A stretch of DNA of 55,896 nucleotides, counting the filler, from Basidiobolus ranarum (taxonomy: Eukaryota): assembly GCA_040143965.1 (NCBI GenBank). It is 2 parts of 2 records of this genome, joined end to end, with 100 filler letters (N's around TTAATTAATTAA, not from the genome) between each part and the next. Parts side by side here need not be neighbours in the genome. Positions count along the whole stretch, not along the records: positions 1 to 28,008 come from JASJQH010000118.1; 1 more part is not named here. One strand, written 5' to 3'. Each line of letters begins with the position of its first letter. Position 1 is the first letter of the stretch. The position numbers and the translations under genes were made by a program. Positions 9,887-42,902 of the stretch are shown piece after piece. The notes beneath the pieces are model-generated. The model did not search any database and had not been told where the DNA came from. It saw only the letters and a program-made list of their open reading frames with translations.

Positions 9887-10369
9887 TTAGATCAAAGTTT
9901 CGTAGGCAATAGGGTAAATGGTGGTAGGAGCGTTGTCCTTAGTGGAGACGTGACGAGCATCACGAGGTTGAGCAGGGAGACGCTTAAGATGGAGAGTTTG
10001 GCCAGCAGCCTTGGCCTCCTTCTTCTTAAGGGCGTTCTCCTTGACACGACGCAAGAAGTCATCACGGCACTTGGAGTGCTTGATGTGCTCAACACGGATG
10101 TTAACACGCTTCTCCATGAAACGGTTACCAACACGCTTGTTGATAATGACACCGACAGAGGTCTTGGTAACGTTGTAAACAATACCAGTTCTACCGTGGT
10201 AGAACTTGTGGGGCATACCCTTTTGGATGGAAGCGTTAGCCTTGATATCGACGATATCACCAACCTTGTAGGTCTTCAAGTAAGTAGAGAGCTTGATGGG
10301 ACCATGCTTACGGAAGGACTGGGAGAACAGGTGGCGAGTACGAGCACGATAACCGAAGGAGTGAGGCAT
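9887..10369 (-). CDS. RPL21: 60S ribosomal protein L21 (eL21)
   Basis: MPHSFGYRARTR...KGMPHKFYHGRTG; strong codon bias; likely 5'-UTR intron 10379-10527. Confidence 0.98.
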   Translation of the reverse strand: MPHSFGYRARTRHLFSQSFRKHGPIKLSTYLKTYKVGDIVDIKANASIQKGMPHKFYHGRTGIVYNVTKTSVGVIINKRVGNRFMEKRVNIRVEHIKHSKCRDDFLRRVKENALKKKEAKAAGQTLHLKRLPAQPRDARHVSTKDNAPTTIYPIAYETLI

Positions 10370-10779
10370 TGTTGCTTACTAAGAGTATCAAATAAAGTTG
10401 AGTTTGATATTAGTAAAGTGATCTTCCATCAGGTCGTATTAAAGTAATGAATTTTTCTTCTCATTTTTTTTTCATGTACTTGTAAATTTTCTTCAAAATC
10501 ACTAATTTTAAAATGTAATATTCGTACCTACAAGAGTTTCCACTGAGCTCGTGAAGGAGAAAAGGAAGTTTCCGGGATAGACAGAGTGCTTACTTTTGTT
10601 GTTTCCAGGGCAGAAAAAAAAATCCTTTTAGCCAGGGGTCGGGCCATCTTCAGGGAGGCGGGTGATTGGTTGAAGCCGGGGCTTTCATGATTTTTTTGTC
10701 CAAACCTTTGGTCAGTTAAAAGTGTGTATTTTTGCTGTGAAACTTCCTTTCCTTTGGTCGGATTCAACAGCGGCACAAC
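10370..10779. promoter_or_regulatory. Bidirectional promoter region shared by RPL21 and RPS9
   Basis: Head-to-head start codons ~410 bp apart; poly(A) tract and GC-rich patch at ~10614-10682. Confidence 0.7.
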
Positions 10780-11587
10780 ATGGCACCCCCAAGAAATTGT
10801 ATTCCTTAAGAACAGTATGTTTTTATTATTATTCGTTCATTTCTACAGTGATGTATCCATATCTGCAATAGATGTGTGATCACTGCTGTTATTGTTTGAT
10901 TTGATTTCATTGTTCTAAGGAAGAGACACCTAGCATATTCTCTGGGCATGAACGAATAACTAGGTCAACCTTGCTTAAAGTCAACGGAAAGTTGGTTCGC
11001 AAAGAACCCAAACTTTACCATAAATTTTTTAACTTTTAGGCTCCAAGACCTACAAGGTCCCCAGACGTCCCTTCGAGAAGGAGCGTATGGATCAAGAGTT
11101 GAAGATCATTGGTGAATATGGACTTCGTAACAAGCGTGAAATTTGGAGAATTGGATACACTTTGTCCAACATCCGTCGTGCTGCTCGTGAGCTTCTCACC
11201 TTAGATGTCAAGGATACCCGTCGTCTTTTCGAAGGTAATGCTCTTATTCGCCGTCTTATTCGTATCGGTGTCTTGGATGAGAGCAAGGCCAAGCTCGATT
11301 ACGTACTTGGTTTGAAGGTTGAAGATTTCTTGGAGCGTCGTCTCCAAACCCAAGTCTTCAAGCTCGGTTTGGCCAAGTCTATCCATCACGCCCGTGTCCT
11401 TATCAAGCAAAGACACATCCGTGTTGGTAAGCAAGTAGTTGACATTCCATCATTCGTTGTTCGTTTGGAATCCCAAAAGCATATTGACTTCGCCTTGACC
11501 TCTCCCTATGGTGGTGGTCGCCCCGGTCGCGTCAAGAGAAAGAGAATGGCCTCTGCTGGTGGTGATGCCGAAGAGGATGAGGAATAA
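10780..11587 (+). CDS. RPS9: 40S ribosomal protein S9 (uS4); intron 10799-11039
   Basis: Spliced [43 protein letters not shown]...SIHHARVLI...[11 protein letters not shown]. Confidence 0.98.
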
Positions 11588-12051: not shown

Positions 12052-13030
12052 TCATTTGCGTCTGCGCTTGGTATCTCTACCTTCACAAGCATCGTCAATC
12101 GAGGACGATTCAACGCTCTAAAAAAGAACTGGGGGGGTTAGATCCTGGGATTATGAAAGCAATAGATATGTAGACGAGCCTGACCTTGCTTCTTCTCTCC
12201 CCGCGAACTTTCTGGATCTTTTCGACTACTCGGAGTAACTCCTCTTCCAACATTTTGAGTTCATCTTTCTTGGCGATCAAGATAGCTGCAGGCTAGAGTG
12301 ATAGGGGATTCTATTTAGTCATGGTACTACAATCAATATAAAAAATTCATTTCTCACATCTTCAGGCTTTGGAAGTTCGATGGTTTTCCATTCTATATCA
12401 GGGATTTCATATCTAAACAAAAAGGAATATAAGTCATGTGTACTACAAGAGAAACGGTTTCTTTGAAAGCTTACAGTCGCTTATGCTCCATTAATCTTCG
12501 CTTAATCTCTTCCCGCGTGAGTTTTCCACCAGTATTAACGATACAATTGTTTTTTCTTTTGATACCCGGACCTTGTTTCTTAGAGTTAATCTCACCAATA
12601 ACGAATGGGTCCAAGTGTAAACCTGCAAATTCTAAAGAGGGAGGGGGAATTAATCGCTTGGTTTGTAAAACCAAAAAAAAATTGAACTTCTTAGATACCT
12701 GCTGTACTTTGTTGACCCAACATACGTTGAAGTTGTAGGTTCATTTGTGCGATGGTTTTTCCAAATAAACATTGGGATTCAATAATCTTGGCCCAATTAC
12801 CAATTCCAAACTTCATAACGGCTTTACGTAAGATGTGTACTTCTGGCTCGGTCCAACCTTAATAAATATACTTTTAGATGAAGTTTCAACTAGTATGAAA
12901 ATCAAAATAAAGTTTGAACATTGTAAATACCTGGAGAGAGGGTACAATTCCACAAACTGGCTGAATCGTTGGAACGTAACACATTACGTGCTCCTACAGG
13001 CATAGAGCGAGGTTTATAAACATCCGTCAT
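12052..13030 (-). CDS. p1 (AMTP1)-like Myb/HTH subunit of the MTA1c/AMT1 DNA 6mA methyltransferase complex (6 exons)
   Basis: Spliced: NDSASLWNCTLSPGWTEPEVHILRKAVMKFGIGNWAKIIESQCLFGKTIAQMNLQLQRMLGQQSTAEFAGLHLD...RKNNCIVNTGGKLTREE; matches ciliate p1 motifs (SLWNxTLSPGW, FGIGxW, QRxLGQQS, RKNNCIxNTG) as I recall them; C-terminal NLS-like KRRRK. Confidence 0.88.
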
Positions 13031-13504
13031 GATAAATAGGCAAAGAAAAGAAGCTTTTAGGTGGAGTGAGTAAAAGTAGTAGGAAAATAGGCAGAATCGA
13101 TGTCAGAGTTGGGTATAGGTCAGTTTCCTTAGAGATATAGAAATATAGAATATTTATTAAGTCGCGTTCATCCTGAGACTGGTGATTTTTTTCTAAGCAT
13201 GCTATCAAGCCCTTTGTTTGTTTACTGTTGGCAAGAATTACTAGAAATCAATCAATCTGTAGACTGCGGCTACCAATCAACTGTATAAATCTAAACGCGT
13301 ATTTAATCATCTTTCGCTAGCCGGGTTTGCAATAGAATCAAGAGTGATATAGAGTTTTTCTATATTTGGGAATAGTGGTTTTTTTTCTTTTGATTTGTTT
13401 CTTTCATATTCTTTATGATTAATAACGCTTTAATACTAAATAAGTAGACTAGTTACTCTTGGAAGTACTTAATTTCGTTTACTATCAACTGTACTCTTAG
13501 CAAA

Positions 13505-14957
13505 ATGGAAGACCAATTTGTAGAAGTACGTTTATTTAATATCTTTACTGTCTGAAGCAATATATCTAATCATTTTAACTTTCAACTTGCTAGCTGACTT
13601 CTTTCTTGAACGATCCTAAGGCTGAGGTACCAAGACGACTTTTTACAAAATCTTTTCTTTTGCAAAGCTAACCCACTAATTGTCTATCAGGTTCGTCAAC
13701 TAGCTGTAAAGCATGTGTTGAGTTTCACTACAAAAGACTCGGGATATCTTCCTTTATTCAAAAAATATGCAACTCAAGTTATTGGTGATTTGAAGAAACT
13801 TTGCAGAGAGCCCACGGTCAGTACCTTTTACTCTAGTCACTGTATAGATAATACTAAAAGCACCATTACTGATGAGAAACTTTCCATTACCTAGCTTATT
13901 GCTCATGATGCGCTATCTGCATTAATCAATCTTTCAGGTGACGCAGAGATTATTGAGCACCTTGACGATATGGGTTTCATTAAGCTATTGGTCTTAATCA
14001 TCATTGTAAGTGTAGTGCTCATAGTATTTGGTTTATTATAAAACTTCTAAACTGGAGTATGTATTCCTCAAGATTCCCAAATCAATTCTTGCTGACGTTG
14101 CCTGTATGCTTCTTGCCAACATCTCCAAATCCGAGTCGGTGTGTGTTAAACTTATGGAGGCCACCAGTACTCCGGTTGATTCCTTGACCAAATCTCATAG
14201 AGTAATCGATCAACTTGCCGAGGTATTTGTCAAAGGCTACGAACGTCAATACAACAGCAACGCCGAGTACCACTTTCTCGCTAGTGTGTTTGCCAACATC
14301 ACAACTGTATGTAAAATAGAGTGCTTACATTTCTGGAAGTGTACTAAAATTTACTTTATAGATTCCCCAAGGTCGTAGCTTCTTCGTTGAAAAGGCCGAA
14401 GACAATGAAGCACCTCTTACCAAAATCACTTGCTTCACCGAAGACAGCCATGTTATTCGTAGAGGAGGAGTTATCTCTACCATCAAGTATGATATTCATT
14501 GGATTTTTGTATGAAGACCTTCGAGGCTAACTTTTAATGATATAGGAATTGTTGCTTTGCCACTCAAAGCCATTCTGATCTTTTAGATGAAGACCAAATC
14601 AACATTCTTCCCTCGATTCTTCTTCCATTGTGTGGTCCCGAAGAATTCGACCTTGATGATATGGATGGCATGCCAGAAGAAGTTCAACTCTTACCTGAAA
14701 CCAAGAAAAGAGAAGCTGATCCTCATCTTCGTAGCACCCTACTCGAAGCTCTAGTGCTATTGACCACTACCCGTGAAGGACGTGAGATTCTTCGTGCTAA
14801 GAAGGTCTACCCAATTGTGCGTGAAGTCCATTTAGCTGAAGATGACGAAGAAATCCAAGGAGTTGCCGATCGAATTGTTCAAATGCTTATGCGAGATGAA
14901 TTACCTGAAGAGCCCAAGATTGTTGAAGATGAAGATGATCAAATTGTAGAGATGTAA
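13505..14957 (+). CDS. HGH1: Hgh1/FAM203 armadillo-repeat eEF2 chaperone (multi-exon)
   Basis: 'CMLLANISK', 'YHFLASVFANIT', 'IRRGGVISTIKNCCF', 'KKREADP...LLEALVLLTTTREGREILR..KVYPIVRE'. Confidence 0.93.
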
Positions 14958-19745: not shown

Positions 19746-19913
19746 GTTCAACTTAAATGGAGAGTAACATTTCGATTCTGTGAAAATTCAAGCAGCATAA
19801 TTTCAGTATAAAAAGTAATATTATTCCAGATCTTCATTAGTGATCCTCTCCTCTCTTTCATTTCATTTTCTCAAGCACCCACGCCCCCTCCCATACTAAT
19901 CTAATATACTATA

Positions 19914-20168
19914 ATGGCCAAAGAAAAGTCCACCAAAAGAACCAGTGGTAAGAAGCTCTCCCCATACAACAAGTTCATGAAAACTGAACTTCCCAAAGTA
20001 AAAGCTGAGGATCCATCCATAGCTCACAAAGACGCCTTCAAGGTGGTTGCCGGTAGATGGAAGAACGCACCTGAGAATCCTGCCAATAAGAAGGACTCAA
20101 AGGAAGTGAAGGAAGTCAAGGAAACTAAAGAGGCTAAAGAATCCAAACCTGTTGATGAAGTGAAATAA
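19914..20168 (+). CDS. Small YABBY-type HMG-box DNA-binding protein (84 aa)
   Basis: KKLSPYNKFMKTELPKVKAEDPSIAHKDAFKVVAGRWKNAPENP plus a KE-rich repetitive tail. Confidence 0.9.
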   Translation: MAKEKSTKRTSGKKLSPYNKFMKTELPKVKAEDPSIAHKDAFKVVAGRWKNAPENPANKKDSKEVKEVKETKEAKESKPVDEVK

Positions 20169-40726: not shown

Positions 40727-40940
40727 TATGATACATAATCGACCATATTACTTACATTTTTCTAATAGCGTGTCATATTTGTATAATAACAGTAGGTTAG
40801 AAGATTCCTCCACTGTATACAATAAATCAATTTTACCATCCAAGTGATGACGTATGAAATGATGTGGAATTCTACAAGGATGAATTATTGGATTGTAGCG
40901 TGGAACTTGTTTAGAGTATAACCAGGCTTTTTTATTCATC

Positions 40941-42902
40941 ATGTCGCGAATAAGTGAACGGTTCGATCCCTCTTCCTTACCTCTAGAAAAACGATATCAT
41001 CCCGAGAACCCTTCTACACAGTGGGGTCATATCCAGTCACCTTATCCCACGAACGCCTGGTGGGAGAATCTGGTACTCAATAGCACGAAAGAAACCATTA
41101 CACCATACCCATATCATGTTCGAGCTGGTTTAAACGAAATATCTATATGTTATCCTACTCGAGAAGTACACGATACATATATCTTTAGTCCCTTTCACGA
41201 AGACTGGATTTTAACTCTCGAAGGAATTGAAAAGAGTGGAGTCATCTACCATGACGAACTATCAGTAGCGGTTGATTACGTTGGTAAAGAAGGGAGAAAT
41301 CTACGAGCTTGGTTTGTTAAAGGAACTCCATATCAAAGTTTTTACGTTACCAAAGGTTCACCGATTCTGAAAACCATTCATGCTATTATTGAAGTATTCC
41401 CATTCCCAGATAACAAGAGAATTTTAATTCATCTAAATAATGGACAATATTGGTGTATCTTTACCGAAGTACCCGTTCATTGGGAACATAATATGAATCA
41501 ACTTTATACTACATCAAGTTTCAACGGATATCTCAGGTTAGCGTATGTACCGCCTCAAATCGAAACCAACTTTCAAGTATTAAGTGACTATTCCACTTGT
41601 ATTCCGATAGGTGGACATGTGACCTATGAGATGCTTCAAGAGGATATAAAGATTCAGTTTGAGTTCTTAACCTTTGGAGAAGGTAGATTACTGATGTTAA
41701 CATTGCCCCATCATAAAGATATATTGGTGAATCCTCGGTTCGTAAATATGTCGGGGTTTACCTGTATTAAAGGAGCCATGATGGCGATAGAAGGAACCTC
41801 TTGGAGTGTAAGAGAACCTCAGATAAAGATCGGATGGTTCTCAGATCGACCCATTGATCAAGAATATTTGGAAATCATTGGAAACAGCCTAATGAAAGAT
41901 GTAGAAAGTAATACTAGTTCTCTCGCCATAGATCCATACTTCTTTGGTAAAGGAGTAGCGAAAATAGCTAGACTGGCACTTATCGCAGAACAAATAGGCA
42001 GATTGGAATTACTTGAAAAAATCCTTGATAACTTGAAAAGAGCACTTGTACCTTGGTTCACAGGAAAAAATCAGAATCCTTTGGTATACGATCTTACTTG
42101 GAAAGGGATCATTTCTCGGAATGGCATCAACGATCGTGGTGCAGATTTTGGAAATGGATGGTATAATGATCATCATTATCACTACGGATATTTCATTTAT
42201 GCCTGTGCAGTCATCGGACGTTATGAAAAATCATGGTTGAATGAATATCGAATTCCCATCTTAGCTTTACTCAAAGATTACGCTAATCCAGTTAGTGGAG
42301 ATCCTATGTTCCCCAAGTTTCGTCATAAGGATATGTATGATGGACATTCTTGGGCATCTGGATTATTTGAATTTGCTGACGCGAGAAATCAAGAATCTAC
42401 CTCGGAAGCGGTGAATGCATACTACGCTGTATATCTCTTAGGTTTAGCGTGGCATGATCCCGAACTTCAAGGAGCTGGACAATTTCTTTTAACTTCTGAG
42501 ATTAGGTCCTCTCGCTTCTATTGGCAAATGGGTGATTCTACCAATATATATGATCGGAAATTTCGGGTCAACAAATGCGTTGGTATTCTATGGGGATGTA
42601 AAGTGGATTATGCTACTTGGTTTGGAAATCTTCCCGAGTATATTCATTGTATTCAATTTCTTCCATTCACTCCCATTACTAGAGCCTTGCTTTTACCATC
42701 TTGGTTAGTTGAAGAGAGAGAAATATTGAACTTGATTTTAAGTAGAAAATCCCCGATGGTAGAAGCTAAATGGGTAGCATATATCCTTATGGCATTAGGA
42801 ATCATAGATAAGAAGATGGCTACTAAGAAAATGTTAGAAGTAAAGGAATTCGATGATGGAAATACTATGACTAATTCATGGTATTGGCTTAGTACCTGTT
42901 AA
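40941..42902 (+). CDS. Endo-1,3-beta-glucanase, glycoside hydrolase family 81, intronless, no signal peptide
   Basis: PTNAWWENL; DFGNGWYNDHHYHYGY; GHSWASGL; RNQESTSEAVNAY (catalytic ExxxE); HCIQFLPFTP. Confidence 0.95.
   Translation: MSRISERFDPSSLPLEKRYHPENPSTQWGHIQSPYPTNAWWENLVLNSTKETITPYPYHVRAGLNEISICYPTREVHDTYIFSPFHEDWILTLEGIEKSGVIYHDELSVAVDYVGKEGRNLRAWFVKGTPYQSFYVTKGSPILKTIHAIIEVFPFPDNKRILIHLNNGQYWCIFTEVPVHWEHNMNQLYTTSSFNGYLRLAYVPPQIETNFQVLSDYSTCIPIGGHVTYEMLQEDIKIQFEFLTFGEGRLLMLTLPHHKDILVNPRFVNMSGFTCIKGAMMAIEGTSWSVREPQIKIGWFSDRPIDQEYLEIIGNSLMKDVESNTSSLAIDPYFFGKGVAKIARLALIAEQIGRLELLEKILDNLKRALVPWFTGKNQNPLVYDLTWKGIISRNGINDRGADFGNGWYNDHHYHYGYFIYACAVIGRYEKSWLNEYRIPILALLKDYANPVSGDPMFPKFRHKDMYDGHSWASGLFEFADARNQESTSEAVNAYYAVYLLGLAWHDPELQGAGQFLLTSEIRSSRFYWQMGDSTNIYDRKFRVNKCVGILWGCKVDYATWFGNLPEYIHCIQFLPFTPITRALLLPSWLVEEREILNLILSRKSPMVEAKWVAYILMALGIIDKKMATKKMLEVKEFDDGNTMTNSWYWLSTC

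Follow-up and report, generated by a model that had tools for sequence, protein, structure and literature searches.

A six-exon gene of Basidiobolus ranarum very probably encodes the P1 subunit of the MTA1c-type 6mA DNA methyltransferase complex

The minus-strand gene at 12052..13030 of the window (the whole stretch of Basidiobolus ranarum DNA analysed here, 55,896 nucleotides with filler included) has six exons, five GT..AG introns and a 214-aa product, and this product is very probably the Basidiobolus orthologue of P1 (AMTP1), which binds DNA within the MTA1c/AMT complex and is not catalytic. This complex comprises Mta1/AMT1, which is catalytic, its inactive partner Mta9/AMT7, P1 and, in some lineages, P2. 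That the product belongs to the p1 family is almost certain: Tetrahymena p1 is its best match in sequence, profile and fold searches alike, in agreement with the first-pass annotation of this DNA, which had named the gene as the p1 subunit of MTA1c/AMT1. The assignment is correct but routine, placing an orthologue in a published family. A gene that public sources call "hypothetical protein" or "Myb-like domain-containing protein", much as the first-pass annotation had expected, thereby receives a functional name, and the family, which is essential in Rhizopus, gains a member from Basidiobolus.

Gene model and evidence for p1 identity

To obtain the gene model, combinations of GT..AG introns 35-249 nt long were enumerated exhaustively, with the start fixed at the ATG at 13030. 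Exactly one splice model gives, with its stop codon, the 214-aa protein P0001, "hypothetical protein K7432_003751 [Basidiobolus ranarum]", identical at 214/214 residues; its introns are 73, 67, 62, 65 and 67 nt long. This unique solution reproduces the exon count and both end coordinates that had been proposed from inspection. The description of the gene as almost invisible in the ORF track was also fair, the longest stop-to-stop frame within it being 89 aa. The peptides quoted at that stage are all found in the three minus-strand frames, with two spacer lengths in error: SLWNCTLSPGW is separated from FGIGNW by 14 residues and not 13, and QRMLGQQS from EFAGL by two residues (TA) and not one. 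The exons are as follows, with secondary structure taken from a predicted model.

13030-12931, minus strand: exon 1, residues 1-33 plus 1 nt, starting at ATG 13030; N-terminal motif and beginning of the SLWNCTLSPG motif, with pLDDT below 50 at residues 16-19 and 21-26
12857-12699, minus strand: exon 2, residues ~34-86; Myb/homeodomain-like three-helix domain, predicted helices 37-50, 55-60 and 69-80, with K67, N73 and R78 invariant and I69 also present
12631-12475, minus strand: exon 3, residues ~87-138; p1-specific extension past the Myb domain, with EFAGLH, predicted helices 95-104 and 126-140, and the RKNNCIVNTG beta-hairpin at 111-118 (predicted strands 111-113 and 116-118; K113 invariant)
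12412-12358, minus strand: exon 4, residues 139-157; YEIPDIEWKTIELPKPED linker with a short predicted helix, 144-149
12292-12185, minus strand: exon 5, residues 158-193; long amphipathic C-terminal helix (model helix 158-196)
12117-12052, minus strand: exon 6, residues 194-214 plus the TGA stop at 12054-12052; acidic/serine tail with a basic KRRRK end, low confidence (pLDDT ~47-50)

The predicted structure is an AlphaFold2 model built on the homologue alignment described below (mean pLDDT 80.8, pTM 0.68). Its three Myb-domain helices reach pLDDT 90-97, and the exon 5 helix 90-96. The tail encoded by exon 6 may serve as a putative nuclear-localisation signal. In the exon 4 linker, I150 and L152 hardly vary across 45 fungal homologues, and the alignment to Tetrahymena p1 runs to residue 150 of that protein.

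Exons 2 and 3 each carry the p1 signal on their own. Searched alone against PDB chains, exon 2 finds Tetrahymena p1 (7f4l_E, 7yi8_C, 8xyl_C) over p1 residues 24-75 at E 1.8e-14 to 2.7e-14, with c-Myb as the next chain at E 0.015. Exon 3 alone finds p1 residues 77-126 at E 7.2e-8 to 1.2e-7; the single other chain among the matches listed has E 1.5, and a search of this exon against Pfam found no family. Because exon 2 and exon 3 separately match adjoining parts of Tetrahymena p1, the observation is not due to chance. With the full protein as phmmer query, the p1 chains (7f4l_E, 8xyl_C, 7yi8_C) score E 1.2e-38 to 5.2e-38, the alignment covering 145 residues (18-162) against p1 residues 8-150. 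A profile of the 45 fungal homologues extends the match over p1 residues 9-218 at E 2.4e-52, the next chain standing at E 8.3e-4. At the level of fold, a Foldseek search of the model against the PDB listed 114 matches, of which only two reach E <= 0.001. One is 9u9e_C, from the structure of Tetrahymena MTA1c on hemimethylated DNA, where it is p1 (E 6.0e-12, TM 0.55/0.66), and the other is the AMTP1 chain 9o6k_C (E 3.4e-10). Identity to Tetrahymena p1 in this search is 50% over 132 aligned columns.

These searches bear directly on the reading that the gene encodes a generic single-repeat Myb/SANT factor (TRF-, Ada2- or Cdc5-like) unconnected with DNA adenine methylation. Pfam would lead to it, since PF00249 (Myb) is the only family found on the full protein (28.6 bits against a cut-off of 24.4, E 1.6e-6, residues 35-74), and the public annotation is uninformative because Pfam detects this generic domain only. 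The Myb domains of TRF, Ada2 and Cef1 do match the full protein, weakly, at E 0.015-0.7. However, the best of all non-p1 chains lies at E 0.015, which places the p1 match about 36 orders of magnitude above any other Myb protein, and the match stays collinear for about 90 residues beyond the Myb domain, through exon 3. Foldseek likewise ranks p1, and then p2, above all other Myb proteins, with the spliceosomal Cef1/Cdc5 chains at E above 0.3. We therefore regard a generic Myb factor as very improbable.

Related proteins were collected by searching a protein collection with exon 2, which gave 69 proteins at E <= 0.001 among 83 candidates; the top two are P0001 (214 aa) and P0002 (216 aa). The alignment took in 45 of the 69. 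The 24 left out were fragments shorter than 160 aa, unnamed or partial entries, and extra sequences of genera already represented (Mucor, Entrophospora and a second Dispira protein), namely P0003, P0005, P0009, P0010, P0012, P0014, P0016-P0018, P0020, P0021, P0023, P0024, P0032, P0037, P0040, P0042, P0053, P0056, P0064-P0066, P0068 and P0069. Forty alignment columns are invariant over the 45 species. The counterpart in B. meristosporus is 91% identical to B. ranarum P1. Rhizopus microsporus P0029 and Mucor lusitanicus P0067 are members of this fungal family too, with identities of 65% and 58%, respectively. Five of the matches coincide with the p1 list in Supplementary Data 3 of Lax et al. 2025: Conidiobolus 4704, Hesseltinella 1320556, Syncephalis 440873 and Sporodiniella 440457 carry the same locus numbers as listed p1 entries, and the N-terminus printed there for the p1 of Coemansia spiralis agrees with that of our match. 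Of additional note, Dispira simplex has, besides its full-length P1 (P0004), a second and shorter P1-like protein of 165 aa (P0064; E 2.0e-13, 90% identity over 71% of exon 2), which may be a paralogue or a fragment.

The product could in principle be P2 (AMTP2) and not P1, as the two subunits belong to the same complex and have a homeodomain-like fold in common. The p2 chains match the full protein at E 0.039-0.063 over residues 34-109 and occupy ranks third to sixth in the fold search (E 0.03-0.09), so that both the sequence and the fold resemblance are weak. The sequence E value of 0.039 compares with 1.2e-38 for p1, and the B. ranarum protein clusters with the p1 and not the p2 entries of Supplementary Data 3 (Lax et al. 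2025). P2 was reported to use N-terminal helices of its own to bind the methyltransferase domain of Mta1, and to stabilise SAM binding (Chen et al. 2022, PMC9174199); nothing equivalent to these helices is seen in B. ranarum P1. The probability that we give to P2 is close to nil.

Among the 69 matches there is one protein from B. ranarum and one from B. meristosporus, and so P1 looks like the sole copy at that sensitivity. This also argues against the locus being a decaying or unexpressed copy that merely resembles P1, as do the intact reading frame, the five canonical GT..AG introns of uniform size and the retention of every column that is invariant over the 45 homologues. We consider such a copy extremely improbable, and P1 remains the reading on which the following sections build.

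DNA contacts, recognition helix and N-terminal motif

Seven basic residues of AMTP1 contact the DNA mimic OCR (K44, K46, K57, R68, K101, K114 and K118), and among these contacts K57A and K101A had the largest mutational effects (10.1101/2025.04.24.650485). We mapped them onto B. ranarum P1 through the phmmer alignment, which is gapless to p1 residue 96 and has one two-residue gap beyond:

AMTP1 K44, B. ranarum N54: not conserved
AMTP1 K46, B. ranarum A56: not conserved
AMTP1 K57, B. ranarum K67: identical
AMTP1 R68, B. ranarum R78: identical
AMTP1 K101, B. ranarum K113: identical
AMTP1 K114, B. ranarum R126: conservative
AMTP1 K118, B. ranarum K130: identical

Four of the seven contacts are thus identical, one is conservative and two are not conserved. 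K67, R78 and K113 each occur in 45/45 fungal homologues, so that both of the contacts with the largest effects, K57 and K101, have invariant counterparts. The conservation of K57, R68 and K101 is shared with Tetrahymena p1, and the replacement of K44 and K46 by N54 and A56 sets the B. ranarum protein apart from it.

A second difference concerns the recognition helix. Binding to an AAC motif has been linked to a pair of spaced Asn residues in Myb helix 3, which are kept in all P1 proteins of early-diverging fungi except the Zoopagomycota representatives (Lax et al. 2025, PMC12019607). In B. ranarum P1 only the second of these positions is Asn (N73), and the first is I69, where the Mucorales proteins have Asn. 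Over the 45 homologues N73 is invariant, and position 69 is Asn in 30, Ile in 14 and Val in one (Syncephalis). The Asn state is found in P1 sequences of Mucoromycota, Glomeromycota and chytrids. The Ile state is found in both Basidiobolus species, in Conidiobolus, in Thamnocephalis and in the Kickxellomycotina genera Dispira, Dimargaris, Tieghemiomyces, Coemansia, Smittium and Furculomyces. Tetrahymena p1 likewise has Ile at the first Asn position in the phmmer alignment. The I69 state agrees with the Zoopagomycota exception described by Lax et al. (PMC12019607). Since Ile stands in place of Asn, the DNA-sequence preference of B. ranarum P1 may differ from that of Rhizopus P1.

At the N-terminus, B. 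ranarum P1 has about 10 residues more than Tetrahymena p1, and these bear a motif that is invariant in the fungal proteins: within residues 7-19, encoded by exon 1, S9, M10, G13, R15, N16 and R19 are identical in 45/45 homologues. The model predicts this segment to be disordered (pLDDT ~50). Tetrahymena p1 cannot hold the motif because the alignment begins at its residue 8, which leaves 7 residues upstream, and the motif is not seen in the Oxytricha and Chlamydomonas p1 N-termini as printed in the supplement of Lax et al. 2025.

Size is a further point of divergence. The Mucorales P1 proteins have 290-301 aa and a long acidic C-terminal tail that is absent from B. ranarum P1. One may ask whether a Basidiobolus-type P1, with no acidic tail, with Ile for the first AAC-reading Asn and with the N-terminal motif as an undescribed interface (to Mta9, to the nucleosome, or one that takes on part of what P2 does), is a functionally distinct minimal variant. 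We hold this to be unlikely; if it were true, 6mA targeting in such fungi would not follow the AAC rule of Rhizopus.

C-terminal helix, partner genes and proposed mechanism

In the ciliate complex, a helix-turn-helix motif of p1 (residues 152-183; Yan et al. 2023, PMC9852454) binds the helical domain of MTA1 through L167, L170, L173, I177 and L181 (Chen et al. 2022, PMC9174199). In the profile alignment, L176, V179 and I183 of the exon 5 helix fall on L170, L173 and I177 of Tetrahymena p1, and they occur in 43/45, 37/45 and 42/45 homologues, respectively. Hydrophobic residues thus occupy three of the five zipper positions and form a stripe along the helix. Of the other two, L167 lies in an insert and L181 is aligned to R187, beside V186. 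The sequence of the C-terminal helix by itself is not recognisably similar to Tetrahymena p1, and when searched alone against the PDB it gave no p1 match, its best hits being unrelated chains at E 1.1 and 1.4; the case for homology is therefore drawn from the profile alignment and the model. From these, it would be reasonable for the exon 5 helix to correspond to the helix-turn-helix/C-terminal helix of p1, which forms a zipper with the N-terminal helix of MTA1. Given the two misaligned zipper positions and the lack of a p1 match to the isolated helix, the Mta1 interface is plausible and not proven.

The ciliate structures, taken together with Rhizopus genetics, suggest how the protein may act. 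The amphipathic helix of exon 5 would pack on the long N-terminal helix of Mta1, thereby tethering P1 to the Mta1-Mta9 heterodimer. The Myb/homeodomain-like domain and the p1-specific extension (exons 2-3) could then swing onto the DNA opposite the catalytic face of Mta1-Mta9, so that P1 closes a saddle round the duplex and the affinity for DNA is raised. The outcome would be symmetric methylation of ApT sites, chiefly where nucleosome linkers lie downstream of active-gene start sites.

Partner genes are known from the congener B. meristosporus, for which Mta1 (ORX98979.1), three Mta9 proteins and a Mettl3 are listed (Lax et al. 2025, PMC12019607, Supplementary Data 4) and which was included in the MT-A70 tree of Beh et al. 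(2018 preprint). Its 6mA level is given as 1.6% in a supplementary table of Lax et al. 2024 (PMC11258239), a paper whose main text puts Basidiobolomycota among the phyla richest in 6mA. By analogy with this species, B. ranarum very likely has an MTA1c-type 6mA epigenome, and we infer that its P1 would be expressed and would bind Mta1, and that Mta1, Mta9 and ApT 6mA would be present. Within the window, 0 of 112 stop-to-stop frames of at least 75 aa match MT-A70; this result is uninformative because the partners need not be linked and such frames miss short exons.

Relation to published P1 systems and genomic neighbourhood

P1 accompanies Mta1 and Mta9 in 6mA-rich eukaryotes, early-diverging fungi included (Lax et al. 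2025, PMC12019607). In the same work, Rhizopus microsporus P1 bound Mta1 in yeast two-hybrid assays, ChIP-seq and DAP-seq showed its enrichment on linker DNA rich in 6mA, mta1, mta9 and p1 were essential, and the P1 family was proposed as an antifungal target in Rhizopus. In Mucor, mta1, mta9 and p1 are present with no p2, and the mutants lost symmetric 6mA, completely so on knockout of p1 (Lax et al. 2024, PMC11258239). The Tetrahymena thermophila p1 is UniProt Q22VV9 (Lax et al. 2025, Supplementary Data 3). With it, B. ranarum P1 shares a common order of elements: the SLWN-x-TLSPGW lead-in, the Myb/homeodomain-like domain, LGQQS, the RKNNCI(V/I)NTG hairpin, a basic helix and a separate C-terminal amphipathic helix. 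The B. ranarum protein is shorter, with 214 aa against 309-364 residues in the Tetrahymena chains, and is without their long low-complexity tail.

P1 in early-diverging fungi has thus already been described, and the assignment in Basidiobolus itself seems to be unpublished. Basidiobolus is absent from the species in part 1 of the p1/p2 table of Supplementary Data 3 (Lax et al. 2025), and the word "meristosporus" is absent from that whole file. In the literature searched, the P1 alignment in Supplementary Figure 17 of Lax et al. 2025 aside, Basidiobolus appears in species lists only and its P1 is never named. The assignment opens no new question: publications already cover the complex, the fungi in which it occurs and the high 6mA of a Basidiobolus species. 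Only two points are mildly new, Ile in place of Asn in the recognition helix and the N-terminal motif that is specific to the fungal proteins and invariant among them, and they offer leads on the choice of DNA by the complex.

The neighbours of the gene are ordinary housekeeping genes, and a comparison of the window frames with Pfam gave no sign of a methylation gene cluster. The genes recognised are:

9890-10375, minus strand: ribosomal protein L21e (E 1.6e-46), which with the next gene lies just downstream of the P1 3' end
11033-11587, plus strand: ribosomal protein S9 (S4 family)
14025-14375 and 14541-14954, plus strand: frames of an HGH1-like gene, matching DUF383 and DUF384, with a candidate ATG at 13506
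elsewhere in the window: a mitochondrial carrier gene, a DEAD-box helicase gene, a GH81 glucanase gene, RabGAP-TBC genes, an End3-like gene and a WD40 gene

P1 and the HGH1-like gene are divergent across an intergenic region of about 475 bp (13031-13505). Two frames in the window drew attention. The first, of 87 aa at 19905-20165 on the plus strand, matches the plant-type YABBY C-terminal family (PF04690, E 4.6e-11) and, more weakly, Ccdc124 (E 1.6e-7) and the HMG box (E 3.1e-5); judged from these matches, it probably belongs to an HMG-like domain protein. The second, at 40899-42899 on the plus strand, is an uninterrupted frame of 667 aa, unusually long in an otherwise intron-rich window, and is of the GH81 endo-beta-1,3-glucanase type (PF17652, E 1.1e-96; PF03639, E 6.4e-29).
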